A stretch of DNA of 64,000 nucleotides from Candidatus Levyibacteriota bacterium (lineage in GTDB: Bacteria > Patescibacteriota > Microgenomatia > Levybacterales > GWA1-39-11). How positions within the stretch are numbered: the first letter of the stretch is position 1; every line of letters starts with the position of its first letter. The notes below the pieces were generated by a model. The model was not told the DNA's origin and did no database searches. It worked only from the letters and a program-made list of their open reading frames with translations. Shown here in pieces: positions 1 to 51,156 of the stretch. Both the position numbers and the translations under genes were made by a program. The stretch lies in assembly GCA_018062815.1 (NCBI GenBank), contig JAGORM010000002.1, positions 92,325 through 156,324 on the forward strand. Direction: 5' to 3'.

Positions 1-516
1 GAGGTGTCTTATTAAGTTAAGAAACGAGTGCAACCCCTATCTTGTGTTAAATATTCACAAGAGACTGCCCCGATTTTATCGGGGAGGAAGGAGGGGCGGA
101 CGTCAAGTCCGCATGGCCCTTATACCTTGGGCTACACACACCCTACAATGGCGAAAAACAATGCGTCGCAAGCCGGTAACGGCAAGCTAATCGCTGAAAT
201 TTCGCCTCAGTTCAGATCGAGGTCTGAAATTCGACCTCGTGAAGTCGGAATTGGTAGTAATCGCAAATCAGCAGGTTGCGGTGAATACGTTCTCGGGTCT
301 TGTACACACCGCCCGTCAAGGCAGCAAAGTCGGAAGCTATCGAATCCCACCTTTCTGTGTTTGATTTTAAGTATAGTTTTAAATCATTTTGAGATTTGAT
401 TTATTAAGCTAACTTTTTAATCGATCGTAGAAAGGTGGGAGAGATAGAGTTCGATGATGAGGCTTAAGTCGTAACAAGGTATCCCTAGCCGAAGCTGGGG
501 ATGGATCACCTCCTTT
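1..516 (+). rRNA. rrs: 16S ribosomal RNA, partial 3' end (about E. coli position 1070 to the end), with an AT-rich insertion at the tip of helix 44
   Basis: Conserved blocks are gcaacccctatc, ggaggaaggaggggcggacgtcaagtc, gggctacacacaccctacaatgg, gaagtcggaatt.gtagtaatcg, gtacacaccgcccgtca, aagtcgtaacaaggta and 3' ggatcacctcctttct (anti-SD). About 60 nt extra (tgtgtttgattttaag...cgatcgta) sit between cccacctttc and gaaaggtggg. Confidence 0.9.
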
Positions 517-766
517 CTAAATTTTTTTCCTATTACCTTTTTGGCGATAGGAAAACGATTTCGCTCGTCCAAGCGCCTTTAAGTACAAAAGGAATGGGCA
601 ACCATTCCTACCACTTTCTAAGCATCTTTAACTTTCTATCTACAAAGTGCAAAATAGTTGATGATAAACTCAACTGCTTTTGTATTTACTTGTGGATTTA
701 TATAATAAGCCTTGGGGAAATCCTGAGGTTTTTTTGTGGCTAAATTTAAAAAAAATAGAAGCTTTT

Positions 767-841
767 TGGAGGTACGGACGGGATTTGAACCCGTGAATGG
801 CGGTTTTGCAGACCGCTGCGTTACCACTTCGCCACCGTACC
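767..841 (-). tRNA. tRNA-Cys (anticodon GCA), CCA encoded
   Basis: Minus strand reads GGTACGGTGGCGAAGTGGTAACGCAGCGGTCTGCAAAACCGCCATTCACGGGTTCAAATCCCGTCCGTACCTCCA. It folds as a cloverleaf with anticodon loop CTGCAAA, a 3-bp D-stem, T-loop TTCAAAT and discriminator U typical of tRNA-Cys. Confidence 0.85.
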
Positions 842-1058
842 AAGTGTATGAATTGTACCAAATGGACAGCCTTAATTCTACAGAGTGGTATAATAAATAT
901 ATGAGTAAAGAAAGCGCAGGGGTTTCTGAGAAATTGAAAATAGCTGGTTTGCTGACATCAGCCATAGGTATATTAGTATCTACTGCACCACTAATTGCAT
1001 TAGGGGTATTAACGTATGTAGCAGGTAGTAGTATGTCTAATCGTCAAAAAACATAAAT

Positions 1059-1424
1059 ATGGTAAAAATTGAAGAAGAAGTATTTGAAGGAGTGGTTTTC
1101 TCAGAAGAGGATGAAATGTCTGCTTTAGATCACCAGATTTTGGCTGGTGAATGGAAGAATCTTACTAAAAATGAGTATTATCATAAGAGAACTCGAGCGG
1201 GCAAGATTATAGCCATGCATCAGGCAATCTCAAATCGTATAAAACAACTTGAAAAACTCTTTTACCCTCTTGTTCGTGACCATCCAGGAAGAGCAGAAAA
1301 GCTACTTATGGAGATTAAAAAGTTAAGATACTTACAGCAGTATTTACTACAAGCATATGTATGGGAAAATCAGGGAGAATTGAACGAGCATGAAATTCCA
1401 AGTGAGCTTGAAGACCTTCTGTAG
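1059..1424 (+). CDS. hypothetical protein (121 aa, acidic, cytoplasmic)
   Basis: Clean ORF between the two tRNAs; no recognisable motif. Confidence 0.35.
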   Translation: MVKIEEEVFEGVVFSEEDEMSALDHQILAGEWKNLTKNEYYHKRTRAGKIIAMHQAISNRIKQLEKLFYPLVRDHPGRAEKLLMEIKKLRYLQQYLLQAYVWENQGELNEHEIPSELEDLL

Positions 1425-1556
1425 ATATGTGTGTCGCAGTGGAACGGAATGCTCAATGCGCATGAGTTCATTTGCGATCTAAGCGATGACAAATGTAGGG
1501 ATGCAATTATTCGCCTCTTTCTTTAGGGTATGAATTATTTCTCCTGAAATCTAAAG

Positions 1557-1628
1557 TGGGTCGTAATGGAGTCGGACCATTCGCCTCTTTCTTATCAGGA
1601 AAGCGTTCTACCGCTGAACTAACGACCC
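1557..1628 (-). tRNA. tRNA-Ile (anticodon GAU), no encoded CCA
   Basis: Minus strand reads GGGTCGTTAGTTCAGCGGTAGAACGCTTTCCTGATAAGAAAGAGGCGAATGGTCCGACTCCATTACGACCCA. It has a canonical D-arm (GTTC AGCGGTA GAAC), anticodon loop CTGATAA and T-stem AATGG/CCATT. The T-loop TCCGACT is slightly atypical. Confidence 0.7.
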
Positions 1629-1829: not shown

Positions 1830-2576
1830 TTAGAGGAGGAAGATAATAATTCCACCTATTACTGTTATTACAATTCCGCCAATGATTCCGACCGTAGCTC
1901 CTATGGATCCACTAGGAGGGATAGTAGGTTGAATGGGCTGGCTAGTCGGAATAACAGGGTTGTTAACTATTGGCGGTGGGTTATTCACTGGAGGATTAAC
2001 CACAACCGGTGTTTTTGTAGGCGATGGAGTAGGAGTAGGCGTCAGTGTAGGAGTAGGCGTAGGAGTAGGTATTTTTGTTGGTGTAGGTGAGGGAGTAGGA
2101 GTAGGCGTCAGTGTAGGAGTAGGCGTAGGAGTGCTTACAGGAATAGTAGGGGTTGGGGTTGCCGTTGGAGGTGGAGGGGTGCAAGAACTGGTAGCACTTC
2201 CAACGCCACTGGGTCCGCATGTATTTTTTGCTATAACCTCACATCTGTATGATTTTCCTTCCTCTGGTTGGAATGTGATAGAAGTTGCCGTGGTGTTGCC
2301 TGCGAGTAATTGTGTATTTGTTGACAGGTCTATAATCTTATAATCATATGATGTTGCCCCCGATACCGCGTTCCATGAGCATTTTCCCGCATCAACTGGA
2401 CATGCATTAGGGGCTTGAGAGATGCGTTGAGGTGGCTGGGGTGTAGTTATTTTTTGAATAAGAAAAACCAGTGTCGGAATAACAATCACTAATGTAACGA
2501 TTCCTATAATAAGTATTTTTTTCTTTAGTTTTGTATTCATATTATTGACATATTCCGCTATAAATTGGCAAACCAT
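1830..2576 (-). CDS. surface protein with an N-terminal TM helix, an FN3-like domain, a Pro/Thr-rich repeat linker and a C-terminal hydrophobic anchor
   Basis: N-term MNTKLKKKILIIGIVTLVIVIPTLVF (likely true start near 2540). The linker has PTPTPTLTPTPTPSPT repeated. The C-terminal IGGIVITVIGGIIIFLL is hydrophobic. Confidence 0.55.
   Translation of the reverse strand: MVCQFIAEYVNNMNTKLKKKILIIGIVTLVIVIPTLVFLIQKITTPQPPQRISQAPNACPVDAGKCSWNAVSGATSYDYKIIDLSTNTQLLAGNTTATSITFQPEEGKSYRCEVIAKNTCGPSGVGSATSSCTPPPPTATPTPTIPVSTPTPTPTLTPTPTPSPTPTKIPTPTPTPTLTPTPTPSPTKTPVVVNPPVNNPPPIVNNPVIPTSQPIQPTIPPSGSIGATVGIIGGIVITVIGGIIIFLL
2030..2160. repeat. approximately 60-bp tandem direct repeat (2 copies) encoding the PTPTPTLTPTPTPSPT linker
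   Basis: gtaggagtaggcgtcagtgtaggagtaggcgtaggagt recurs about 60 bp apart within the CDS. Confidence 0.6.
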
Positions 2577-3549
2577 TTATATTAGACACGCTACAAATAC
2601 CGCTTATACAATCCGTAGGTACAGAGCATGAAGATCCTGGTTTTCCAACATTACTTTTAGGAGTTGGGGTAGCTGTTGGAGCTCTTGTTGGAGTAACTGT
2701 TGGTTGATTCCCCGTTGGGGTTATTGGTGTCTGATCTCCTGAAGTGGGAGAAGGAATAGGTGTGCTTATTTTAGGTGTAGGAGTAGGTATTACGCTTGAT
2801 CCGCCATCACAGCCGATACAGGTAACAATTACGCCTGCAGGAGTTCCAGGTACAGGACATGCTAACGTAGGCGTAGGAGTTCCAGGTACGTTTGTTGGCG
2901 GTGGGGTATTTCCAGGGGGTTGAGTTACTCCTACGGTAGGAGTAGGTATTTTTGTAGGCGATGGTGTTGGGGTAGATTCTGTTGTTGGTGTAGGCGAGGG
3001 TGTTGGAGGAGTTTCACAGTCAAAATAGAAAAAGAATGACATTTCCGTTCCGTTCCTACTTTTTATATTGTCTGACTGTGTTGCGTCTGGAAGATATACA
3101 TCAGGTGTCCCATCGCCTGCATACACCCTACATGTACCGTTAAATGATCCACCTGAGAAATAAGCGTTTACCTGAAGATTATCATCGCAGCCACCTGAAC
3201 TGCACCCAATTGTTTGGATGTCCCCATATGAGGCTGTGCCATTAAATGGTGAAGTAGTAGTTGAGTCTGATCTTTTTAAACATTTTACCTCGCTGGTGCA
3301 GGCAGGGGCTCCAACATCAATTCTAAAGACTTGATTTGGAGGAATATTCTTACCAGTTATCTTGAAATTAAGCCCAACAGAGTCTACAAAGTTTACTCCC
3401 GGGTAAATTTCAGATACAGGTACATTTCCTGCCCCTGGGCAAGTGTCCCAACTCTTTGCGCAAGCAACATTGTCAGAGGTGTTTATGCCAATAAAATAGA
3501 GTGCTATAAAAAATACGACCCCTATAAATATTTTTTTAATTCTGTTCAT
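2542..3549 (-). CDS. secreted protein with a signal peptide, Pro/Thr-rich linkers and a Cys-rich C-terminal knot
   Basis: N-term MNRIKKIFIGVVFFIALYFIG has the hydrophobic h-region of a signal peptide. PTPSPT tracts follow. The C-term reads SSCSVPTDCISGICS...SGICQ. Confidence 0.5.
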   Translation of the reverse strand: MNRIKKIFIGVVFFIALYFIGINTSDNVACAKSWDTCPGAGNVPVSEIYPGVNFVDSVGLNFKITGKNIPPNQVFRIDVGAPACTSEVKCLKRSDSTTTSPFNGTASYGDIQTIGCSSGGCDDNLQVNAYFSGGSFNGTCRVYAGDGTPDVYLPDATQSDNIKSRNGTEMSFFFYFDCETPPTPSPTPTTESTPTPSPTKIPTPTVGVTQPPGNTPPPTNVPGTPTPTLACPVPGTPAGVIVTCIGCDGGSSVIPTPTPKISTPIPSPTSGDQTPITPTGNQPTVTPTRAPTATPTPKSNVGKPGSSCSVPTDCISGICSVSNINGLPIYSGICQ

Positions 3550-4476: not shown

Positions 4477-5439
4477 TTAATCACCTCTTCTTGTTGCAAA
4501 TCCGCGAAGAAGTATGTTTAAATCCCGTGGATCCATGACTCCGTTATCATTTAAGTCAGAAAGTACTTTATATTCGTTTGTGCAATCTGTTCCAGCATAG
4601 CATGACAAAAGAATAGAATAGTCATTTATGTCTAATAAATTATTTGAAGATCCTTCTGATTGAATATCACCTGAGACCACCACAACAGGAGGTGTAGTCG
4701 CGGTTATACTTTGTGATAACTGATGAACTCCGGGTATAGTTTTTGTGAGTGAGTTTGCGGCGCGCACTTTTATGGTGTAAGGTCCGCTTGCAATATTATT
4801 AAATATTGCGTTTCCCTTATATACACCATTGTCATAGGTAAGTGTTGCGGTTGTTTTTCCTGCTTCAGTATTTTGCTCATCATATGCGTATACATCAAAT
4901 GCTCTGGAGGGGTGTTGCGGTTGGTTATTTTCTCCCAATGCAGTGTTTGAGCCAATTCCAGGAAGGGAAACTGCAAGAGTTATTGCTGCACCCTGTGATG
5001 TGCTCGGTGTTGTACTTAAAGCAGGAGAGGGTATGGGTGTTGCTGTAGGATTTGGAGTTGGAGTAACCATAATGCACTGAATGCAGTTGGTTTGATTTGG
5101 ATTATTAGGCGAGTCTTGGCAGGATTTTGCGAAACTTCCCTGATAGGGACCAGAGGGAATGTACTGCCAACATGAATATTGTCCGACTTCACAGGAGACA
5201 TGGTCGGTTCCGCCGCAATACTTAACTAATGTAGCGGAAGAAGGATTTTCGGATTCTGAGTTAGTTGTTGTAAAGTCCACGGAAGCTGCACGTTGACGGA
5301 TATCTTGCTGTTGGTTTGTAAGCATAACCGTTACCGGGATAGAAAGAATAAGAACAACAATTATCAGAGACCCTATCACCCTTTTTTTGGAAGAAAGGAA
5401 AAGTTCTTCAAAAATACTGCCAAAAGAGCTTGGATTCAT
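4477..5439 (-). CDS. secreted Pro/Thr-rich protein with a C-terminal dockerin-like Ca-binding repeat
   Basis: N-terminal TM is followed by LTNQQQDIRQRAAS. The C-terminus has GDIQSEGSSNNLLDINDYSILLSCYAG and SDLNDNGVMDPRDLNILLRGF. The second segment fits the dockerin loop D-x-N-x-N-G-x-x-D-x-x-D-L-x-x-L-L. Confidence 0.55.
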   Translation of the reverse strand: MNPSSFGSIFEELFLSSKKRVIGSLIIVVLILSIPVTVMLTNQQQDIRQRAASVDFTTTNSESENPSSATLVKYCGGTDHVSCEVGQYSCWQYIPSGPYQGSFAKSCQDSPNNPNQTNCIQCIMVTPTPNPTATPIPSPALSTTPSTSQGAAITLAVSLPGIGSNTALGENNQPQHPSRAFDVYAYDEQNTEAGKTTATLTYDNGVYKGNAIFNNIASGPYTIKVRAANSLTKTIPGVHQLSQSITATTPPVVVVSGDIQSEGSSNNLLDINDYSILLSCYAGTDCTNEYKVLSDLNDNGVMDPRDLNILLRGFATRRGD

Positions 5440-5517
5440 ATACTAATCATAGGTAGATTTTTTTATTTTTGCAAGACCTTGGGATTTGCTGTTTTATAAA
5501 AGTGCAGAATTTTAGAT

Positions 5518-5964
5518 TTAGTTTTCTGTAGTTGAAACAGTACAGGATGCAAGAGCGTTAGGTAAATTGTTCTCCATAGGTTTAGACGGATCAAGAAGTG
5601 ATATTTTCCAAGTAGTTTCAGGTTTATCAAATTTATAGATTATTGTGTCTTCCTTTTTTTCAACAATTGAATATCCATCTGCGGGTTCAATGTATGGTTC
5701 AGGTGCATATGGGTATGAGACTACTAAAAGTTCAGATGTTTCCCCCGGTCTTATTGTTCCAGGCGTAAAGATACATGCGGGTGTACTATCTGCTGCTTGT
5801 TGTCTGACATCTTGCTGCTGATTTGCAAGATAAAATGTTAAGGGGACAGCACCTAACACAAACAATACAAAAAACACGCTAATTGTTCTTTGCGGAGAGG
5901 AAAATAGTGCTTTTCCTAGTACATACCCAATTGAGCGTTTTTCAACAACTTTCATTCCATACAT
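5518..5964 (-). CDS. small secreted protein sharing the TM-NQQQDxRQxAA N-terminal module with the 4477..5439 protein
   Basis: The N-terminus reads VFFVLFVLGAVPLTFYLANQQQDVRQQAAD. Confidence 0.45.
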   Translation of the reverse strand: MYGMKVVEKRSIGYVLGKALFSSPQRTISVFFVLFVLGAVPLTFYLANQQQDVRQQAADSTPACIFTPGTIRPGETSELLVVSYPYAPEPYIEPADGYSIVEKKEDTIIYKFDKPETTWKISLLDPSKPMENNLPNALASCTVSTTEN

Positions 5965-11119: not shown

Positions 11120-11575
11120 ATGAAAAAGCTGAAGAAGTATGAATTTTATCCACCTCACAAGCATTTTGTGCGTTTTCTTAAGCGTGTTGAATATAAAAGA
11201 TATTTTTTGTACTTAATCCGTTGGCAATTATCAACTCCTATACTTGCACCCATTGTAGCCTGGGTAAAACATTCACCATCTATTCTTGGTACTCCTGAAG
11301 ATTGGTATGCTGCGGGAATCGCAAATCTTATAGGAGGTCTTATTTTCTTTTGGGTTGACCTTTTTATATTCAAATCTCAATCTTTGGCTACACAATGGGA
11401 AATTAAAGAAAATATTAGATGTACGGATTGCAGAAAGATTGCTCGTGGTTATAGACTAGTTAAAACACCAAAATATGACAGGACAAAAGATATAAATCCT
11501 GAATTTAGGTGTGAAAATTGTTCTATGAAAAAGTCAAAAAAATTAAGAGAAAGAGGTATTTCTACTGAAGGGTGA
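11120..11575 (+). CDS. hypothetical membrane protein with a C-terminal CxxC...CxxC zinc-ribbon
   Basis: Two predicted TM helices, then CTDCRK...CENCSMKK. Confidence 0.4.
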   Translation: MKKLKKYEFYPPHKHFVRFLKRVEYKRYFLYLIRWQLSTPILAPIVAWVKHSPSILGTPEDWYAAGIANLIGGLIFFWVDLFIFKSQSLATQWEIKENIRCTDCRKIARGYRLVKTPKYDRTKDINPEFRCENCSMKKSKKLRERGISTEG

Positions 11576-12194
11576 TCGTGAGGGGTCGAGTATCTTTAAG
11601 GATAGAGCCCTGAGTAGTATTTGTTGTCACCTTTGTTTCTTTCCCAAATGTAATACTTGCAGAAGCACTTGTTCCTTTTATCACAGTAAATGCTAATTTC
11701 CCAATACTTCCGGTCCCATTTACAGGCAAGCCGTTTGTGCTTATAACTTCTGCAAAAGTTAGCTTTCCGGGAACTGAAGTATCTGTAAATAGTGTCATAT
11801 GAGATCCGGGATTGTTTCCGAAAAGTGAATTAGTGGTTTCAGACGGAAGAATCTTAACATTTGTTATCTGTTTTGGGTCATAAAGAATTTCTGCTTGGGC
11901 ACCAGTTATAGGGGTACCTGCCGTTTCAACAATTATGTCAACGGTCGCTGATGGTGTAGTTGAGGTTGAAAGGTCTAACACTGCAGGAAAAAAAGAGACG
12001 CTAGCCGTTTTCATAACTGTTGGGGTGGGGGTAACTGTTGCAACTGTAACTGCTGGTTTATTTTGGGATCCAATCCAAATGGAAAGCCCGAGTAGTGCAA
12101 CCGTTAGAGTAACTAAAAAAGATATCAGAATTAATGTTTTTCCTGGGATACTCCTCATATATTTATTATGCCCATAAGGGCAAAAAAATTGCAA
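11562..12194 (-). CDS. secreted or membrane-anchored cohesin-like domain protein
   Basis: N-terminal TM and a PT linker, then VDIIVETAGTPITGAQAEILYDPKQITNVKI...GKLTFAEVISTNG...GSIGKLAFTVIKGT...ITFGKE. This resembles the type-I cohesin pattern (xFxYDPxxLxxxxV ... G.F.F...G.AxxxFxV). Confidence 0.45.
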   Translation of the reverse strand: MQFFCPYGHNKYMRSIPGKTLILISFLVTLTVALLGLSIWIGSQNKPAVTVATVTPTPTVMKTASVSFFPAVLDLSTSTTPSATVDIIVETAGTPITGAQAEILYDPKQITNVKILPSETTNSLFGNNPGSHMTLFTDTSVPGKLTFAEVISTNGLPVNGTGSIGKLAFTVIKGTSASASITFGKETKVTTNTTQGSILKDTRPLTITLQ

Positions 12195-17489: not shown

Positions 17490-18482
17490 CTAGTCGCCAA
17501 TTACTCCTCCCCATTCAACTGCTGTAAATCCTTTTCTTTCAGGAGCGGGAGTAATAGTGAGTTGTATAACGTTTTTAGGATTTATGAGAGGTGCAAAATA
17601 AGCAATAAACTCTATGAAAGTATCAGGTTTGGGTGTAATTAAAACACTATCCTGACGTTCTTTTTCCTCTTTTTCTAATACGGAAAAGAAGATATAGTTA
17701 GTATCAAGTTCTTGTAGTCGTGGGATCCAGAAGTCTAAAAATTCATCTTGTTCGTCTTTTTTTGTAAGACCCAGCAATATGATTTTATCCCTTAAGTTAC
17801 TTTTCAGGTTTTCTTTTGAGAGAACAATTCCTTTTTTGGGACGGTTAACTTTTCCCGATTCTATTTCATAAAATAATTCTCTGTATGTTTTTCCCATATA
17901 TTCAAGTTTTCCGCTAGGGTGTGCGAGTACATTTTTCCATCCACCGGATGGGTAGAGCGGATCACTAACAATTATCTTTCCTTGCGTTTTAACTGTCACA
18001 TTTACATATGTTTCAGTAGTTGGGTAAAGATAGATAACTGGTTTTCCTATGCAGTATGATCCATCTCCATAGTTAAGGTTTGTCTCACAAAATATGTATT
18101 GATTGCAAAAGTCAGCCTTAGCTTGAGTATCAAACGGGTTTTCAACTACACATCTCTTATTTTTGCATGTGAACATTCCTTGACGTGCTTTGCATATGCA
18201 TGGAAGTGTAACCGGTTTTCCGGTGTCAACAGGGCATATGGATGTGTCTTCCTGGTCTGGAGTTGATTCGGTTACTGTAGGGACAAGGGTTTTGGGTTGT
18301 GCCGGGTTAAAAGTATCTATCTGTATGTTAGCGCGTGGATTATTTGATGCAATTTTTGCAGCTTTAGGAGTTTTTGCAATTAATATTGCGGCAAAAACAG
18401 CACATGTCACAAGAAGTAAAATTCCTATTTTGATAAATGATATTCTATGTGCCTTTTTACTAATGTTTTTCTTTCTTTTCAT
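17490..18482 (-). CDS. hypothetical secreted Cys-rich protein
   Basis: N-terminal TM, a Cys-rich block (CPVDTGKPVTLPCICK...CKNKRC), and an uncharacterised C-terminal domain. Confidence 0.35.
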   Translation of the reverse strand: MKRKKNISKKAHRISFIKIGILLLVTCAVFAAILIAKTPKAAKIASNNPRANIQIDTFNPAQPKTLVPTVTESTPDQEDTSICPVDTGKPVTLPCICKARQGMFTCKNKRCVVENPFDTQAKADFCNQYIFCETNLNYGDGSYCIGKPVIYLYPTTETYVNVTVKTQGKIIVSDPLYPSGGWKNVLAHPSGKLEYMGKTYRELFYEIESGKVNRPKKGIVLSKENLKSNLRDKIILLGLTKKDEQDEFLDFWIPRLQELDTNYIFFSVLEKEEKERQDSVLITPKPDTFIEFIAYFAPLINPKNVIQLTITPAPERKGFTAVEWGGVIGD

Positions 18483-19079
18483 TTATTTTGTGTTAATTTC
18501 CAGATTTACTTTTCCTAGTACAACATTTGGAGTTTGTGGAGAGGACGCAAAAGATGCTTGGTCAATTTTTATAATTGCGGAAGTTGTTCCCTGTGTAAGT
18601 TTTCCGGTTACTTTTGCAATTATTCCCTTCCCTTTTGGGTATGGAATTGAAGTGGGTATCAGATAAGACTGGCTAATTGTTCCTTGTTCAGGGTTGCTTT
18701 GTTTGATTCCTGCGGTGAGATTTACAGAATAGGATAAGGCAGAGGAAGGATCATTTACGGATATAATTTTAACATTACTAACTTGAAGCGGATCATACGA
18801 TAGCGCAATTGTAATTTTAGAGACGGGGATGCCATAGCTATCAAATAGTATGCTTGAGGTAAATGTGGACTGTTTATTTATGGTTATTGTGTTGGGTGAG
18901 AAAGAAACCATCATAGTAGGAGATTCTTGTTTGGGTGTTTGAGTAGGAACTATTTTTTGAGTTAATGAAGGAGGAGGGGTATTTTCATTGAGAAATACAA
19001 AAAAAACAATAAATATAAAAATAACTATAGATACTAAAAATAAAATAAGCGTCAATTTTTTTTTGAAAACACCAGTCAT
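18483..19079 (-). CDS. membrane-anchored cohesin-like domain protein
   Basis: ITIALSYDPLQVSNVKIISV...GKGIIAKVTGKLTQGTTSAIIKIDQASF resembles the cohesin pattern and the 11562..12194 protein. Confidence 0.4.
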   Translation of the reverse strand: MTGVFKKKLTLILFLVSIVIFIFIVFFVFLNENTPPPSLTQKIVPTQTPKQESPTMMVSFSPNTITINKQSTFTSSILFDSYGIPVSKITIALSYDPLQVSNVKIISVNDPSSALSYSVNLTAGIKQSNPEQGTISQSYLIPTSIPYPKGKGIIAKVTGKLTQGTTSAIIKIDQASFASSPQTPNVVLGKVNLEINTK

Positions 19080-19093
19080 ATCTTTATCTTATA

Positions 19094-21226
19094 TCATATA
19101 CATACTCCTGCGCCAGGATTGTTTGTAAAGACACAGGCAGTACCCGTTTTCATTTGTAGGCACTGATTATTTCTGGTGCAGCTTGTTACGTTTACTTCAG
19201 AGTTGGTGGATGCTGTACTGCCTGAAGTACCTGTGCAGCAGATATTTCCTTTTCCTGATTTCTGACATGAATAATTATGTCCCAATGGAGAAGCCAGAGT
19301 GCCTGATTTACACGTGTTTCCTGACTCACAGTGATAAGAGCTTGTATTGCAGTATGCGCCTGATTCTGAGGGGTCTTTGTATACACAATATGATGTTGCA
19401 GTTCCCGTACTGCTTGTACACTTAAATTCAGGGGCACAGTCGCTATTCCCATTATAACAGTGGTCGTTTTCCCTTCCTGATCCTCCCGTATTTCCTCCAC
19501 CACCTGATGAGGGAGCAACACAACTAGATTTATTTGCCATGCATTTCCCTTGCGCTTCACAATAGCGTTCAGTAAATCTACAGCAGTAAGTCTGGTTTGA
19601 GGAGTTATTTGCGTCTTTCCATCCGGGGTAGCATGCGTTATCTGAGCTTCCTCCGCAAGAGCTTCCCTGAGTTGTGCATGATTGACCTATCTGATTATCG
19701 CTGTTATTGCCGTTTTCACCGGTATTGTTTCCCGGGGGAGGATTTTCTTTTTTTTGATCATCATTTTTGGGAGGACTATTATTATTTCCAGTGTTTTCAA
19801 GACAACAAACAGAGCGAGAACTGCCATACGCGTTTGCGCATGCTAAATTTGCTTCTTGTTGCGTAGCGTTTGTGTCAGGCTTAAATCCAGTGCCACATGC
19901 CGTTGCCTGACAGGTATTCACTTTTCCAGAAGGACCTATGTTATTGCATGCGCTTGGACGGAATGTGCACTTAGCTCCATCCCAATAAGGAGTAGGGTCT
20001 TTACAGGTCTGTCCTTGAGGAGGCTGAGGGAGTGTGCCTGAGTTGTCTTGCACCCAGGGGAATTTGTTACATATCTTCATGAGACCGTTTTTAGGTGTAA
20101 AATCATAGGTTTTATCAGCACAAAGATAGACATCATAATATTTACCCGTCGCATAGGGATTTGGGGTTGATTTTGCTTTTTGATCTGTAAATAGACCCAG
20201 TTTATAGTTTTCATTTGTGGGTTGGGTTGTCATGCATATTGGCCCGTAATATCCGTTGGGATAGGAATCTGTATTAACCCCGTTTTTCTCTTTGCAGATG
20301 ACTGTGGTAGAAGATTTACCCGTGCCGGGATTTTGTTGGAAATTATTACCTTCACCTTCAAAATAAGCGCTTTTTTTAAGTGTCTCTTTTTCTCTTAAGT
20401 TAAAATTTCCTCCTGGGAAAACGCCTTGATCACCCATTATGGAATTTTTATATTCTGGGGAATTAACGGGATATCCTATCTCGTTCGGATGAGAAAGTCC
20501 AAATGTATGTCCTAGTTCATGAGCTATAGCTCCCGTGCCCTGTCTGCTAGTGGGCATTTTTTCAGAAGTACACCTATCAACGGAATTAATCGGGTCATTT
20601 TTGTAATAATATTTTTTTATTCTATTACAGTTTTTGTCCAACTCTGGGTAAATGGAGACATCTCCAATTACGGCAGTCGCAAGTTCACCATTTGCGCCCG
20701 CGTATCCTCCGCCACCCATAAATGCTACAATATTAATTGTTCCAAACTGAGGTCGTCCTATTTCTTGAAGTATATTGCCCATGCCATCTTTTTGAATACA
20801 CTCTGTCTCTCCGTTGCTGCACCAATACCATTCTGAATCTTTTTTCCCAATAACTGTTTTTACCGGTTGCAAAACAAATGTTTTCCCGTTCAATTGCTTA
20901 CCGTAATATGTGCGTATTTCATCCATTTTCTGATTAATATGATTTACTACAGCGTTATCTACTGGATAGTCTGTTGGAAAAAATACTATTGGTTGAACAG
21001 AAAAAGCATTATCCGCTATGCGAGAAGTTGTGGGCTGATTTACCTGGTTTGGGTTGCGAGTTAAACTATTTAAAAAAGAAAGTCCTCCAAACGGAACAAA
21101 GATTGCTATCGCAACGGTTGCAAGTGTGAGGAGAGACAAAAAACCTGAGGACTTATTTATTGTTTTATTGCTAGGTTTAATAAAAGAAGTTTTCATAAAA
21201 TAGGTTTGTTTTAAGAAATCACACAT
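19094..21226 (-). CDS. secreted zinc metalloprotease of the metzincin type with a long Cys/Gly/Asn-rich C-terminal region
   Basis: AHELGHTFGLSHPNE is the HExxHxxGxxH signature, with a downstream SIMGD Met-turn candidate. There is an N-terminal TM/signal. The roughly 300-aa C-terminal tail has many Cys, with N/G/S-rich low-complexity stretches. Confidence 0.6.
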   Translation of the reverse strand: MCDFLKQTYFMKTSFIKPSNKTINKSSGFLSLLTLATVAIAIFVPFGGLSFLNSLTRNPNQVNQPTTSRIADNAFSVQPIVFFPTDYPVDNAVVNHINQKMDEIRTYYGKQLNGKTFVLQPVKTVIGKKDSEWYWCSNGETECIQKDGMGNILQEIGRPQFGTINIVAFMGGGGYAGANGELATAVIGDVSIYPELDKNCNRIKKYYYKNDPINSVDRCTSEKMPTSRQGTGAIAHELGHTFGLSHPNEIGYPVNSPEYKNSIMGDQGVFPGGNFNLREKETLKKSAYFEGEGNNFQQNPGTGKSSTTVICKEKNGVNTDSYPNGYYGPICMTTQPTNENYKLGLFTDQKAKSTPNPYATGKYYDVYLCADKTYDFTPKNGLMKICNKFPWVQDNSGTLPQPPQGQTCKDPTPYWDGAKCTFRPSACNNIGPSGKVNTCQATACGTGFKPDTNATQQEANLACANAYGSSRSVCCLENTGNNNSPPKNDDQKKENPPPGNNTGENGNNSDNQIGQSCTTQGSSCGGSSDNACYPGWKDANNSSNQTYCCRFTERYCEAQGKCMANKSSCVAPSSGGGGNTGGSGRENDHCYNGNSDCAPEFKCTSSTGTATSYCVYKDPSESGAYCNTSSYHCESGNTCKSGTLASPLGHNYSCQKSGKGNICCTGTSGSTASTNSEVNVTSCTRNNQCLQMKTGTACVFTNNPGAGVCI

Positions 21227-21264
21227 TATTACATTAGCATGTGTAATCTATAAGTCAACAGGTC

Positions 21265-21780
21265 TTAGCTACAGTTTGTTTTTTCAAATTCCTTTTCTGC
21301 TTTTATTGTTCCCCCTGTCAAATCATTCCCTGATGCAGTGCCGCCTTCATAAAGAATTACTTGCCAGGATTTAGTATTAAATCCATCTGTATTATCCAAC
21401 ACCAAATCATTCACTTGAACGTTTTGTTGATTTGGTTCGAAAGAGTTATAGATGTTTTCATTTATGGTTACCGGCGTAAAAATTTCTCCATTTTTGATTT
21501 CTATTTTGTAGTGTCCATTGGCTGTTCCATGAAACGCAAGGGTAACATTTGAGGTATTATTTGTGCTGTCACACTGTACGCTTGAGGGGAGTTCTATTCT
21601 CCAGCTACTGGAAGGAGTTGCCTGCGGAGATCCAGTATCATTTGCATTTCCATTATTTTTCTTACTGTTTTCTGCCTGAAATAAAAACTGTCCACCTACA
21701 AGTAAAAATGCACCAACAATGACTATAAATATAATAAGAAATTCAATTTCGCCCCTGGTAGTTTTTAATAATTGCTTCAT
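21265..21780 (-). CDS. TadE-like pilin-like (pseudopilin) secreted protein
   Basis: N-term TTRGEIEFLIIFIVIVGAFLLVGG has a Gly followed by Glu at +5 then a hydrophobic helix. This is the class III (prepilin-type) signal as in TadE/TadF. Confidence 0.4.
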   Translation of the reverse strand: MKQLLKTTRGEIEFLIIFIVIVGAFLLVGGQFLFQAENSKKNNGNANDTGSPQATPSSSWRIELPSSVQCDSTNNTSNVTLAFHGTANGHYKIEIKNGEIFTPVTINENIYNSFEPNQQNVQVNDLVLDNTDGFNTKSWQVILYEGGTASGNDLTGGTIKAEKEFEKTNCS

Positions 21781-22811
21781 GGTGTCGGAGTAAGGTTTGT
21801 GCTACCTCCTGTTTCCTCGCAGATCTTGTCCGCAATCTGCCCATAAATTGCCTTAATATCCTCAGGTTTTGTTGTTTTATAAAATGAATTGGGTGAGGCA
21901 ACAGCTTGCATCATGGTTGTAAGCTTGCTTTCAAACGGTCCATCTGTCTTTGGATCAAATACCAGAATCGAGAACACTCTGACATTTTTTCCATTTATGT
22001 TTTTTAGTGCTTGTATTTGTTGGGCAATTTGAGGATTTGTGGTCGGATCCTGATCCGCATCAAAGCAACGGCACGTTCCGGTTTGGTACGCACACATTGG
22101 ATATCTAGCGCTGGAAAAAGATGAGCATGCTGTTGCTGTTGGTACTCCAACACCGTCTCCTTCAGGAATACCATCAGAAATAAAAACCAGATTAAATGAA
22201 TTGTCTTTAAATTTAGGATCAGAAACTGCTTTTGTTAGATCCTCAAGCTCTGCTGCAAAAGCGGTGCGCGTATTAGTTCCGCCTGAGGCTACCAACTGAT
22301 TCACGGCTGCATTAAATTGTGATTTGTTGTTTTTATAAAAATCAATTTCAACCGGTCGGGAAGTTGCTGTTGAGCCTGTATCACTTGAGCTATAACGCCT
22401 AAGACCTGTGATAGAATCATTCGTAAAATTGCTTGCAAAGTCTTTAAGTGAGGATTTAATTATTTGTATTTTATTACCGCGTTCCATTGAGCCTGATGTA
22501 TCAACAAGAAAGTCAATAGCAGCACGGTTACTACATGCTGCAAATCTTATGGTTTTTAGCTGTAGCGCATTTTTTTGTGTTGAGTTTTCGCGGATTGGTT
22601 CACCTATGACATTACTACCCGATTCAGACAGCTTAAATTGAGGACCACCAGAAACCAGAAGAAAAGCACCAAATATTATGACTCCAATAAGTAAATAAAG
22701 CGCAACTTCTCCGCGTTGCCAGAAGAGAAAACTCTTTTTTAGTGTGTGTTTTGATAAATTTGAGGATTTTTTTTTCTTTGAGTTTTTATGGGGAATAGAT
22801 TTTTTCTTCAC
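21777..22811 (-). CDS. von Willebrand factor A domain protein with a TadE-like pilin-type N-terminus (TadG-like putative pilus-tip adhesin)
   Basis: N-term QRGEVALYLLIGVIIFGAFLLVSGG is paralogous to the upstream protein's N-terminus. The MIDAS motif reads FLVDTSGSMERG. It overlaps the previous gene by 4 bp. Confidence 0.55.
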   Translation of the reverse strand: MKKKSIPHKNSKKKKSSNLSKHTLKKSFLFWQRGEVALYLLIGVIIFGAFLLVSGGPQFKLSESGSNVIGEPIRENSTQKNALQLKTIRFAACSNRAAIDFLVDTSGSMERGNKIQIIKSSLKDFASNFTNDSITGLRRYSSSDTGSTATSRPVEIDFYKNNKSQFNAAVNQLVASGGTNTRTAFAAELEDLTKAVSDPKFKDNSFNLVFISDGIPEGDGVGVPTATACSSFSSARYPMCAYQTGTCRCFDADQDPTTNPQIAQQIQALKNINGKNVRVFSILVFDPKTDGPFESKLTTMMQAVASPNSFYKTTKPEDIKAIYGQIADKICEETGGSTNLTPTP

Positions 22812-37189: not shown

Positions 37190-38884
37190 TTACCTCCAGA
37201 AATAGTAGAAAGGAGTGTTTTTGGACTTGTTAACGGAAATTTCATTAGTTGCTGAGTTGTTATTTTGATCATACGCAACTACCTTTACTTTGTGTTGCCC
37301 CTTAGATATATTTTTTGTATTCCATGAATAGGTAAATGGTCTTTGAGTATCAACCCTATTTAATTTTCCGTCGATATAAAACTCTACTGCTGAAACGTTT
37401 CTATTATCTGTTGCGTTAACTTGAATTGACGTTGTATTTTTAGATATTAAGGAATTGTTTCCTGGATTTAGAATTACAATTTCAGGCGCGAGTGTATCAG
37501 CTGCGACGGGTGTAGCTGTAGGACGAATAGTTGGCGTTGGTGTTGGAGGTCTGGGTGTAGCTGTAGGACGAATAGTTGGCGTTGGTGTTGGAGGTCTGGG
37601 TGTAGCTGTAGGCAGAGGAGTGACCTTTGCAGTTGGAGTAGGATTTTGCGTAATGGTTGTTGGAGATACAGTTGTTACTGTAGGAGATGGAAGAATTAAA
37701 TTCAGAGTAAATGGTCTCCTATACATTGTGTGATAGACAGTGTTATGTTGTCCTTTTGAATAGTATAAATATCCATTCTGATTAGTTTCCCATGCACCGG
37801 GTGTATTTGGAGAAATTAGGGTAGCGTAGTAATACCATACGTCTCCAGTTGCTAAGCTTCCAAGATTTTTAGGAAATGTGATCGGTATCATTTGAGGCGT
37901 TTCAAAAAAAATTCCATCTGTAGACAGAGTGGTGTAAAAACCGTTTGATGCCTGAAATAAAAGCAGATACCTATTAAGATATGTATTAAAGCTTATGTTT
38001 GCAAGAGAAATAAATACACTTTCAGAGACCGGTTCAGGACGGGAGATAACAGGCGTGCTTTCTCCTCCCAAGCCTGGAGTAGAGAATTCCCCGTTATGCC
38101 ATTTTTTATAACTTCCTGGAATAGCGGCTAAATTGAATGGTGCACGGGCTAGATATATTTGATCAGGACTACCAGTACTCCAATCTGTGTAATATACATA
38201 AATGTAATCTCCGATTTTTATAGCCGAGGGTTGGCCGGCGCCACTTACTCGTGGTTTATCGCAACTTACATCATGTGTTCTTCCTGTAATTATTGCGCCT
38301 TTGCGGTTCCATGATATTCCTCCATCGGTAGATGTAGCTACCCCAACCGTTGCAGTATAAGGATTATTTGGTTTTCCTGGGCAGTGATGTTCAGCGTGAT
38401 AAATTCCGATTAGCTCTCCAGGGTTTTGACCAGGCAATACACTCCCGAATCCCACATAATCCGCGTCAAATTCACTACCCCCAGGATTGCTAGGGAGAAA
38501 AATAGGAATAGGGTTTCCGCTTGATGTTCTTGCTTGAGGAGTTAAATTGTTTAAATCTGACCCGCTATATCTATATGATCTCACCTCCGAAGTAAGCCAG
38601 AGTTTTATGCCGTTTGCGTCTTTTACCATGGAAAGGGTAGTATCAGGCCAGCTTCCCAATAATTCGTTGGGAATGTTTGGAAAACCTGCTTCCTCAGCTC
38701 CCAGCGTTATTGTGTATTGTGTACTGCTTTGAGCAGGTGCCCTGTAGTCAAAAAGATGATTTGTTTTCAAAAGAGCATATGTTCCGATACCCAAAATTGC
38801 TAAGACAATAATAGAGAAGTAAGGATTGCCAATAAGTCGGCGAAGTGAAAATTTATTTTTTTTCCTTTGGATAGCTTTCACCAT
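37190..38884 (-). CDS. secreted or membrane-anchored protein with a beta-propeller/glycosidase-like N-terminal domain, a PT repeat linker and a C-terminal Ig-like domain
   Basis: N-terminal TM. The linker has PRPPTPTPTIRPTAT repeated. The C-terminal segment VEFYIDGKLNRVDTQRPFTYSWNTKNISKGQHKVKVVAYD resembles an Ig-like domain. Confidence 0.45.
   Translation of the reverse strand: MVKAIQRKKNKFSLRRLIGNPYFSIIVLAILGIGTYALLKTNHLFDYRAPAQSSTQYTITLGAEEAGFPNIPNELLGSWPDTTLSMVKDANGIKLWLTSEVRSYRYSGSDLNNLTPQARTSSGNPIPIFLPSNPGGSEFDADYVGFGSVLPGQNPGELIGIYHAEHHCPGKPNNPYTATVGVATSTDGGISWNRKGAIITGRTHDVSCDKPRVSGAGQPSAIKIGDYIYVYYTDWSTGSPDQIYLARAPFNLAAIPGSYKKWHNGEFSTPGLGGESTPVISRPEPVSESVFISLANISFNTYLNRYLLLFQASNGFYTTLSTDGIFFETPQMIPITFPKNLGSLATGDVWYYYATLISPNTPGAWETNQNGYLYYSKGQHNTVYHTMYRRPFTLNLILPSPTVTTVSPTTITQNPTPTAKVTPLPTATPRPPTPTPTIRPTATPRPPTPTPTIRPTATPVAADTLAPEIVILNPGNNSLISKNTTSIQVNATDNRNVSAVEFYIDGKLNRVDTQRPFTYSWNTKNISKGQHKVKVVAYDQNNNSATNEISVNKSKNTPFYYFWR
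37512..37612. repeat. perfect 45-bp tandem direct repeat (2 copies plus an 11-bp partial third)
   Basis: gtagctgtaggacgaatagttggcgttggtgttggaggtctgggt occurs at 37512..37556 and again at 37557..37601. It is in frame and encodes PRPPTPTPTIRPTAT. Confidence 0.85.
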
Positions 38885-50112: not shown

Positions 50113-51156
50113 TTAGCTCATAATCCCAGTAATCATTGCTACTACTTTATTTTCCTCATTGTCTAATCCGTCTATTTTTTTTAGTTTCTTAGCGTTTGCC
50201 ATTTTTTCCCAGTTTGAGAGTATAGAGCCTTTTATGTAAGCATCTATAACATGAGGATGAATGTAGTATTTTCTGCAGGTATTAGGTTTATTTCGCAAGT
50301 GACTTGCTACTTTTTTTACAATTTCAACAATATTTTTTTTTGAATCTTCCTCTTGAGCTGGAATTCCTGCTTTGTCAAATGCCGTGGCTGCAAGAACAGT
50401 TCCTCCCCAGGTTCTAAAGTCTTTTGCTGTAATTTCTGCACCTGTTATCTCCTGAAGATATGTATTTACATCTTGGGAGGAAATAGATTGAATAATTCCT
50501 TCTTCATCTTTGTATTCAAATAGATCTTGACCGGGAAGCTCTTTGCATCTTCTTACAATTTTTGCTACTTTTTTATTTTTGATACTTACATTGTGGTATA
50601 CGCCTGACTTTCCCTTGAACTGAAAAACAATATTTGATTTATAGGAAACACTTGCGTGTTTATTCTTGAGCGTAGTAAGTCCATAGGATTTATTCTCGCG
50701 CTCGTATTCCTCGTTACCAATTCTGATTAGTGTGTTTTCAAGAAGCCAGACCACAGCAGATATTACTTTTCTTCTCTGAATTCCCATAAGTGTTAGATCC
50801 TGCTTGACGGTAGCTCTTATTTTGGGAAGATGCTGTGCAAACTCCAAGAGATGTGAAAATTTTTCTTGCTGTGAAATTTGATTCCAAAGCGGGTTGTACC
50901 TATATTGTTTTCTTCCCCGAGCGTCATATCCTGTTGCTTGAAGATGTCCGTTTGCATGAGAGCATATCCAAACATTTTTGTATGCGGGGGGTATTGCAAG
51001 TTTTTGTATTCGATCAACTACTTTTTTATCTGTAATTTTTTTTCCTTCGGTATCAAAATACTCAAACGTGTTTCTGACTCTTTTTCTTGTGTATCCAGGT
51101 TTTTTGTCCGTAGAGTATCTTAGGTTTGTATTCTTTAGGAAATCGTTATCAGTCAT
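50113..51156 (-). CDS. type IB DNA topoisomerase (poxvirus/bacterial TopIB type)
   Basis: N-term LRYSTDKKPGYTRKRVRN...IPPAYKNVWIC...GYDARGRKQYRYNP. The C-terminal RKYYIHP region is the candidate active-site Tyr. Confidence 0.7.
   Translation of the reverse strand: MTDNDFLKNTNLRYSTDKKPGYTRKRVRNTFEYFDTEGKKITDKKVVDRIQKLAIPPAYKNVWICSHANGHLQATGYDARGRKQYRYNPLWNQISQQEKFSHLLEFAQHLPKIRATVKQDLTLMGIQRRKVISAVVWLLENTLIRIGNEEYERENKSYGLTTLKNKHASVSYKSNIVFQFKGKSGVYHNVSIKNKKVAKIVRRCKELPGQDLFEYKDEEGIIQSISSQDVNTYLQEITGAEITAKDFRTWGGTVLAATAFDKAGIPAQEEDSKKNIVEIVKKVASHLRNKPNTCRKYYIHPHVIDAYIKGSILSNWEKMANAKKLKKIDGLDNEENKVVAMITGIMS

Follow-up and report, generated by a model that had tools for sequence, protein, structure and literature searches.

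What would a single cohesin domain, fixed in the membrane of an ultra-small bacterium, serve to hold? The question is raised by a minus-strand gene in a 64,000-nucleotide stretch of a Candidatus Levyibacteriota contig (JAGORM010000002.1, positions 92,325 to 156,324; hereafter the window), whose product joins a predicted N-terminal transmembrane anchor, a linker and one cohesin domain. We consider it likely that this protein, as a membrane-anchored cohesin, holds a secreted, dockerin-tagged protein on the cell surface, so that a connector of the cellulosome kind would serve here in a role other than cellulose breakdown. The initial annotation had placed the open reading frame (ORF) at 11562-12194, and a minus-strand frame of 210 codons opening with TTG indeed contains every peptide that it quoted, but the start at 12194 has to be moved, since the homologues begin at 12158. 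All aligned homologues start at M(R/S/K)xIPGKT and lack the 12159..12194 extension, and the identical public protein, the 198-amino-acid (aa) “hypothetical protein KBC00_01725” of Candidatus Levybacteria, starts at the ATG at 12158 (MRSIPGK...); the coding sequence was therefore set to 11562..12158, and the extension is probably not translated. The window also matches contig JAGOPA010000005.1 of assembly GCA_017992235.1. A spurious ORF was ruled out because the gene is conserved. The parts of the gene are as follows:

11562..12158, minus strand: gene for the 198-aa membrane-anchored single-cohesin protein, stop codon included (ORF, homologue alignment, identical public protein)
12159..12194, minus strand: in-frame upstream extension from TTG (MQFFCPYGHNKY), absent from the homologues and from the 198-aa public annotation
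12069..12137, minus strand: predicted N-terminal transmembrane signal-anchor, about residues 8-30, TLILISFLVTLTVALLGLSIWIG, with R2 and K7 before it (sequence, AlphaFold helix)
12006..12068, minus strand: low-complexity linker rich in proline and threonine (PT-rich), about residues 31-51, SQNKPAVTVATVTPTPTVMKT (sequence; predicted local distance difference test score, pLDDT, below 50 at residues 40-46)
11565..12005, minus strand: all-beta cohesin domain, about residues 52-198 (sequence and AlphaFold model)

The N-terminus of the protein consists of two basic residues followed by roughly 23 hydrophobic ones, and T8, I12 and L15 of the anchor are nearly invariant in 46 family members, between which the PT-rich linker differs in both length and sequence. 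The transmembrane segment and PT linker proposed earlier are borne out by the sequence and by the AlphaFold model, which shows a helix at residues 6-31 and a disordered linker. Neither an AxA cleavage site, a lipobox Cys nor an LPXTG motif was found in the sequence (C-terminus ...RPLTITLQ), and a lipoprotein or sortase substrate was ruled out on the latter two grounds. Because of these missing sites and the positive-inside rule, the segment is predicted to be an uncleaved signal-anchor with its N-terminus inside.

The domain behind the linker was then compared with known families and structures. Pfam Cohesin (PF00963) was the sole Pfam match of the 198-aa protein, which reached the curated cut-off only marginally (E 4.5e-5; 24.1 bits against a cut-off of 24.1), with an alignment spanning profile positions 15-137 of 139; the 210-aa ORF scored 24.0 bits, and a search of NCBIfam returned no match. 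All ten close homologues matched PF00963 at E ≤ 0.01 (best 2.7e-7), and a profile of the target family retrieved only cohesins from the PDB (5g5d, 3l8q, 2bm3, 2b59 and 3kcp). The AlphaFold model computed on the family alignment (mean pLDDT 78.6, with 80-92 across most of the domain) shows the domain as a nine-stranded beta-sandwich of the jelly-roll type. Its 50 best Foldseek matches in the PDB were 50 cohesins, headed by CohA2 of C. acetobutylicum (E 8.7e-10, template modelling score 0.78), and the 20 best structural neighbours were all true cohesins, with a clear gap before other folds. Since the profile, the homologues, the model and the Foldseek search all indicate a cohesin, neither a different fold nor unrelated nearest neighbours were found, and the cohesin-like assignment of the initial annotation is upheld. 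Type II and type III cohesins carry an extra helix and beta-flaps and measure about 170 aa, and type I cohesins measure about 140 aa without them; the size of the modelled target domain (about 147 aa) and its nearest structural neighbours suggest that it may be type-I-like.

The family of the protein is large: when 1.84 billion representatives, clustered at 50% identity, were searched exhaustively with its profile, 805 members scored E ≤ 1e-3, and 439 of these reached E ≤ 1e-10; the best 150 of the 805 are nearly all 180-230 aa long and match end to end. Their layout is constant: a transmembrane helix follows a short basic N-terminus (MxKKT) and is joined through a PT-rich linker, which varies, to a single cohesin domain, in which (I/V)(T/S)G(V/A)Q.E(L/I).YDP is the most conserved stretch. 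The organism names recovered for the family were Levybacteria or Levyibacteriota only, two cluster look-ups added none, and a scan of a genome collection gave two loci, both from close Levyibacteriota. Sample labels name 0.1-0.2 µm groundwater fractions as the source of several of the metagenome contigs. One locus (L007; CAYMYC010000005.1), titled “uncultured Gammaproteobacteria bacterium”, has an 83%-identical cohesin and the same neighbours as the Levybacteria window, and its bin label is probably wrong.

The evidence on what such a cohesin might bind comes from gene order. We fetched 44 metagenome loci by the cohesin motif G[VA]Q[VIL]E[LI]xYDP alone, each of which contained a family member; once cohesins had been merged at 90% identity and locus L008 added, there were 39 distinct loci, 35 of them with at least 300 nucleotides upstream. 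In 27 of these 35, the next ORF upstream, on the same strand, closes with a conserved two-segment C-terminal module; this ORF mostly overlaps the cohesin frame or stops less than about 100 nucleotides from it. The consensus of the module is LIxGDIxxDNxLDILDYNxLxSC...C....ADLNDDGxVDxxDxNxFxRxFxxxxGD. A dockerin consists of two segments in tandem, in each of which a helix comes after a calcium-binding loop of 12 residues. Searched against the PDB, the module profile gave about 30 top matches that are all dockerins (best 4fl4_A, 1.3e-9), and the type II CipA dockerin 2b59_B was matched over the whole module at 1e-7. Pfam Dockerin_1 (PF00404) was matched by 18 of 24 aligned modules (best 2.7e-8), the module of the window being among the non-matches. 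By homology, the upstream C-terminal module is identified as a dockerin; it differs from clostridial dockerins in a conserved Cys pair between the calcium-loop segments and in its GD ending. Outside this module the partner proteins are highly variable (289-1119 aa). Ten of them were scanned and matched only Dockerin_1, SdrD_B, NPCBM_assoc, FixG_C, Ig_VWA7 and PT, that is, immunoglobulin (Ig)-like or beta-sandwich domains and PT repeats, along with Cys-rich stretches; no enzyme domain, glycoside hydrolase or carbohydrate-binding module (CBM) was found in these ten. Because the partners vary so widely, the dockerin is the only constant feature of the upstream neighbour.

Some further features of these loci were noted. 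A few of the upstream dockerin proteins also carry an N-terminal cohesin-like domain, in the manner of an adaptor scaffoldin (L017:1705-3147, L043:3536-4864 and L051:261-2423), and L033:1-4873 has a tandem dockerin-cohesin-dockerin-cohesin gene order. The motif (A/S)(I/V)P(L/V)T....QQQ(D/E)xRQ(R/Q)A recurs after a hydrophobic segment at the N-terminus of many secreted proteins, including those encoded at 4477..5439 and 5518..5964 of the window, in L014, L017, L023, L035, L043 and L051, and at L004:10144-11412. It had no Pfam or NCBIfam match and may serve as a signal, or as a site of processing, specific to the lineage.

We propose that the target is a minimal anchoring scaffoldin, whose uncleaved signal-anchor would sit in the cytoplasmic membrane and whose linker of about 20 residues would place the single cohesin domain outside the cell. 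There the cohesin would bind a secreted protein by its C-terminal calcium-loop dockerin and so retain it non-covalently at the surface. Across the family, the cargo would be a variable, enzyme-free, adhesin-looking protein with Ig-like domains; in the genome studied here, the likeliest cargo would be the product of 4477..5439. Many cargo proteins begin with a transmembrane-like segment followed by IPxT...QQQDIRQRA, not with an ordinary AxA signal peptide, and a cargo whose N-terminal segment stays uncleaved would be fastened at its two ends, or could link one cell to another. A more speculative and only tentatively held extension is that the cohesin gene and its upstream gene form a widespread, conserved two-gene “plug-and-display” cassette of ultra-small, Candidate Phyla Radiation (CPR)-type bacteria, in which a constant membrane socket would present fast-evolving, enzyme-free, adhesin-like cargo exchanged through the dockerin plug. 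Cargo with its own cohesin would then give multi-tier assemblies, and the whole could be a host-attachment apparatus of episymbionts.

The partner in the window was sought with a leave-one-out profile of 23 sister modules. Among the 370 ORFs of the window, this profile found a dockerin module in 4477..5439 only (E 7.1e-21, 68 bits; aa 248-321 of the stop-to-stop frame), the very ORF that had been put forward earlier as the partner. This ORF, its module and a second cohesin-like gene of the window are described as follows:

4477..5439, minus strand: candidate partner protein of 320 aa, predicted to be secreted or anchored, with a transmembrane or signal segment, QQQDIRQRA motif, Cys-rich region, PT linker, beta-sandwich and C-terminal dockerin (translation; homology to L014)
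4480..4698, minus strand: two-segment dockerin module, residues 248-320, GDIQSEGSSNNLLDINDYSILLSC...C...SDLNDNGVMDPRDLNILLRGFATRRGD (profile built without its own sequence)
18483..19079, minus strand: paralogous 198-aa protein with transmembrane segment, linker and cohesin-like domain (family profiles A1, E 3.9e-12, and A2, E 8.8e-38)

The module of 4477..5439 has the two-segment dockerin layout, and its segment 2 (DLNDNGVMDPRD followed by LNILLRGF) is canonical. Searched alone against the PDB, it gave weak matches, 13 of 17 of which are dockerins; a word-indexed homologue search with the dockerin region returned only the region itself. Pairwise BLASTP linked the C-terminal regions of the window protein and L008 (2e-10), and jackhmmer gave no link between the two. 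Over its full length, the 4477..5439 protein aligns with the dockerin protein at L014:369-1235 (BLASTP, 32% identity, E 4e-38), which stops 54 nucleotides upstream of the L014 cohesin. That cohesin is in turn the closest metagenomic relative of the target (39% identity, 5e-31, compared with 4e-7 for the paralogue), and all 12 paired cohesins compared preferred the target over the paralogue, which is itself 30% identical to the target and had no Pfam match when searched alone. Because they are homologous to an adjacent dockerin protein and cohesin in L014, 4477..5439 and 11562..12158 appear to be the two halves of one cassette. On this sequence-based argument, we give roughly even odds to 4477..5439 encoding the target's own partner.

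Several observations count against the docking model or this pairing. Segment 1 of the 4477..5439 dockerin (GDIQSEGSSNNLLDIND followed by YSILLSC) is degenerate, with a lengthened calcium loop; the protein alone had no Pfam match even at E ≤ 10 and no NCBIfam match; and a single-sequence AlphaFold model of the dockerin region (4480..4992) had a pLDDT of 47 and was unusable. In the Levybacteria lineage (the window and L004-L007) the cohesin gene does not lie beside a dockerin gene: its upstream neighbour there encodes a UppS-like prenyltransferase, as in the window, or a CBS-methyltransferase. In the window, the cohesin gene and 4477..5439 are about 6 kb apart, the pairing is drawn by orthology, and the intervening genes belong to nucleotide metabolism (dCTP deaminase, kinases, ThyA, NUDIX and DHFR); in the Levybacteria lineage the two halves of the cassette would have been parted by this stretch. 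The 4477..5439 protein may also keep its own N-terminal transmembrane segment, which would change the geometry of the complex, and the paralogue at 18483..19079 could be the true receptor instead of the target.

At the position of window 4477..5964, a 57%-identical relative (L004:9601-11412) has two genes. The first encodes a Cys-rich secreted protein of 175 aa whose two-segment dockerin is canonical; the product of the second exceeds 420 aa (627 aa in the gene call) and combines a transmembrane segment with a cohesin. Several cohesin and dockerin genes are therefore present in these genomes.

Other functions for the target were weighed against surface docking. A cohesin fold could bind a ligand other than a dockerin, such as a cell-wall or host-surface carbohydrate or another protein surface, and the gene adjacency would then reflect only the shared regulation of surface proteins; this appears unlikely, given that the nearest structural neighbours are all true cohesins, well separated from other folds, and that the dockerin is what persists upstream in 27 of 35 loci while the rest of the partner changes. 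The tight, same-strand, operon-like gene pairs would also suit a helper in the assembly or export of the upstream protein, for instance a membrane platform that polymerises or processes it (pilus- or fibre-like) and not a static anchor. The N-terminal IPxT...QQQDIRQRA of many partners might then be a processing site, and the cohesin and dockerin found together in some partners could let chains form. We nevertheless regard a helper as improbable, since the 198-aa protein consists of anchor, linker and cohesin only, with neither a catalytic or ATPase domain nor a polytopic membrane part.

A classical cellulosome anchoring scaffoldin tethering plant-cell-wall-degrading enzymes was a further candidate: cellulosomes are the best-known setting of cohesin and dockerin modules, and the closest structures are cellulosomal. 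It is nonetheless highly improbable here, and we rejected it: the ten scanned partners contain Ig-like domains only and no glycoside hydrolase or CBM, the cohesin is single and has no S-layer homology (SLH) or sortase anchor, and the genome is a reduced Candidatus Levybacteria genome. The non-cellulosomal setting suggested by the initial annotation agrees with the fact that no cellulase scored above threshold among the 39 window proteins or the ten partners. The only glycosidase-like hint among the proteins scanned was a sub-threshold DUF4185 match (32 bits against a cut-off of 39.5) in a 564-aa protein (37190..38884, minus strand) that has a Big_7 Ig domain and no dockerin.

Surface docking by the target can also be set beside described systems. 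Its identity to type I cellulosomal cohesins (C. acetobutylicum CohA2, 6kgc; C. thermocellum CipA, 1ohz/1aoh; OlpA, 3ul4; OlpC, 4dh2) is 12-21%, and whereas the scaffoldins of that type present cohesin arrays with SLH or sortase anchoring, the target has a single copy on a transmembrane anchor and no link to polysaccharide-degrading enzymes. The anchoring scaffoldins SdbA/OlpA/OlpB and ScaE use SLH repeats or a sortase LPXTG motif, in place of which the target has its N-terminal transmembrane helix, and their partners are plant-cell-wall-degrading enzymes or enzyme-loaded scaffoldins, unlike the ten partners of the target family. The cohesin-like modules of Clostridium perfringens toxins and glycosidases (2vo8, 2w1n, 2jh2 and 2o4e) lie inside large secreted glycoside hydrolases and not, as here, on a small membrane anchor. 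Cohesins and dockerins that are not cellulosomal occur in many bacteria and archaea, according to a passage of PMC9012536 citing Peer et al. 2009. Compared with such modules (Archaeoglobus fulgidus cohesin 2xdh; anaerobic methanotrophic, ANME, archaea), the target represents a defined family of proteins of about 200 aa with a transmembrane anchor and a conserved, operon-like dockerin pairing. The closest parallel in gene order is ClcC/ClcD of Cellulosilyticum lentocellum, where single-cohesin and single-dockerin genes are likewise adjacent and the complex was shown biochemically (PMC13487519). That pair enhances cellulase activity (PMC13487519), whereas in the target family the cohesin is membrane-anchored and the cargo has no recognisable enzyme.

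The modules and the docking principle are already known, and some family members are annotated with PF00963 in databases, so that the underlying mechanism is neither new nor surprising. In the literature searched, whose coverage was incomplete, we found no dockerin or cohesin description of this kind for CPR bacteria; within that literature, a family of single, transmembrane-anchored cohesins that is paired, in a conserved operon-like order, with enzyme-free dockerin proteins is apparently undescribed. In CPR bacteria, little is known of how the surface is built and varied or how hosts are attached to, and most surface proteins are unannotated. A membrane cohesin socket with dockerin-tagged, adhesin-like cargo gives a testable model for a “hypothetical protein” family of 805 clusters at 50% identity and for the variable genes adjoining it. 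The family also supplies dozens of natural cohesin-dockerin gene pairs from a distant lineage, with a distinctive dockerin (inter-segment Cys pair, C-terminal GD), which could be used in studies of specificity or as orthogonal building blocks for protein assembly.

Around the target gene, a promoter and terminator scan gave nothing above chance. The gene overlaps a convergent gene (11120..11575, plus strand) tail to tail by 14 nucleotides (11562..11575); this neighbour, kept beside the cohesin gene in the closest relatives, encodes a 151-aa membrane protein without a family match and with a zinc-ribbon-like C-terminal end (CxxC...CxxC). The paralogue at 18483..19079 lies within a same-strand run of membrane-anchored or secreted proteins (17490..22811, minus strand), which is conserved in the related Levybacteria contigs L011-L013 and in whose proteins no dockerin was found. 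The run includes a VWA-domain protein (21777..22811), a 171-aa transmembrane protein, a 330-aa transmembrane protein (17490..18482) and a 710-aa protein (19094..21226) that carries a zincin-like HExxGH motif and ends in a long Cys-rich tail; the last, which lies upstream of the paralogue, is not similar to the 743-aa protein upstream in L008.

Elsewhere in the window, two secreted proteins of 248 and 335 aa (1830..3549, minus strand) are for the most part composed of Cys-rich stretches and PT-rich linkers of great length; they had no significant family match and two weak, sub-threshold ones (Y_Y_Y and metallo_SslE). The window opens with the 3' end of a bacterial 16S ribosomal RNA (rRNA) gene (1..516, plus strand). 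No 23S rRNA was found anywhere in the window, and tRNA-Cys and tRNA-Ile lie on the opposite strand (1..1628), so the rRNA genes are unlinked. A bacterial type IB topoisomerase (Topoisom_I and Top1B_N_bact), an enzyme patchily distributed in bacteria, is encoded at 50113..51156 on the minus strand.
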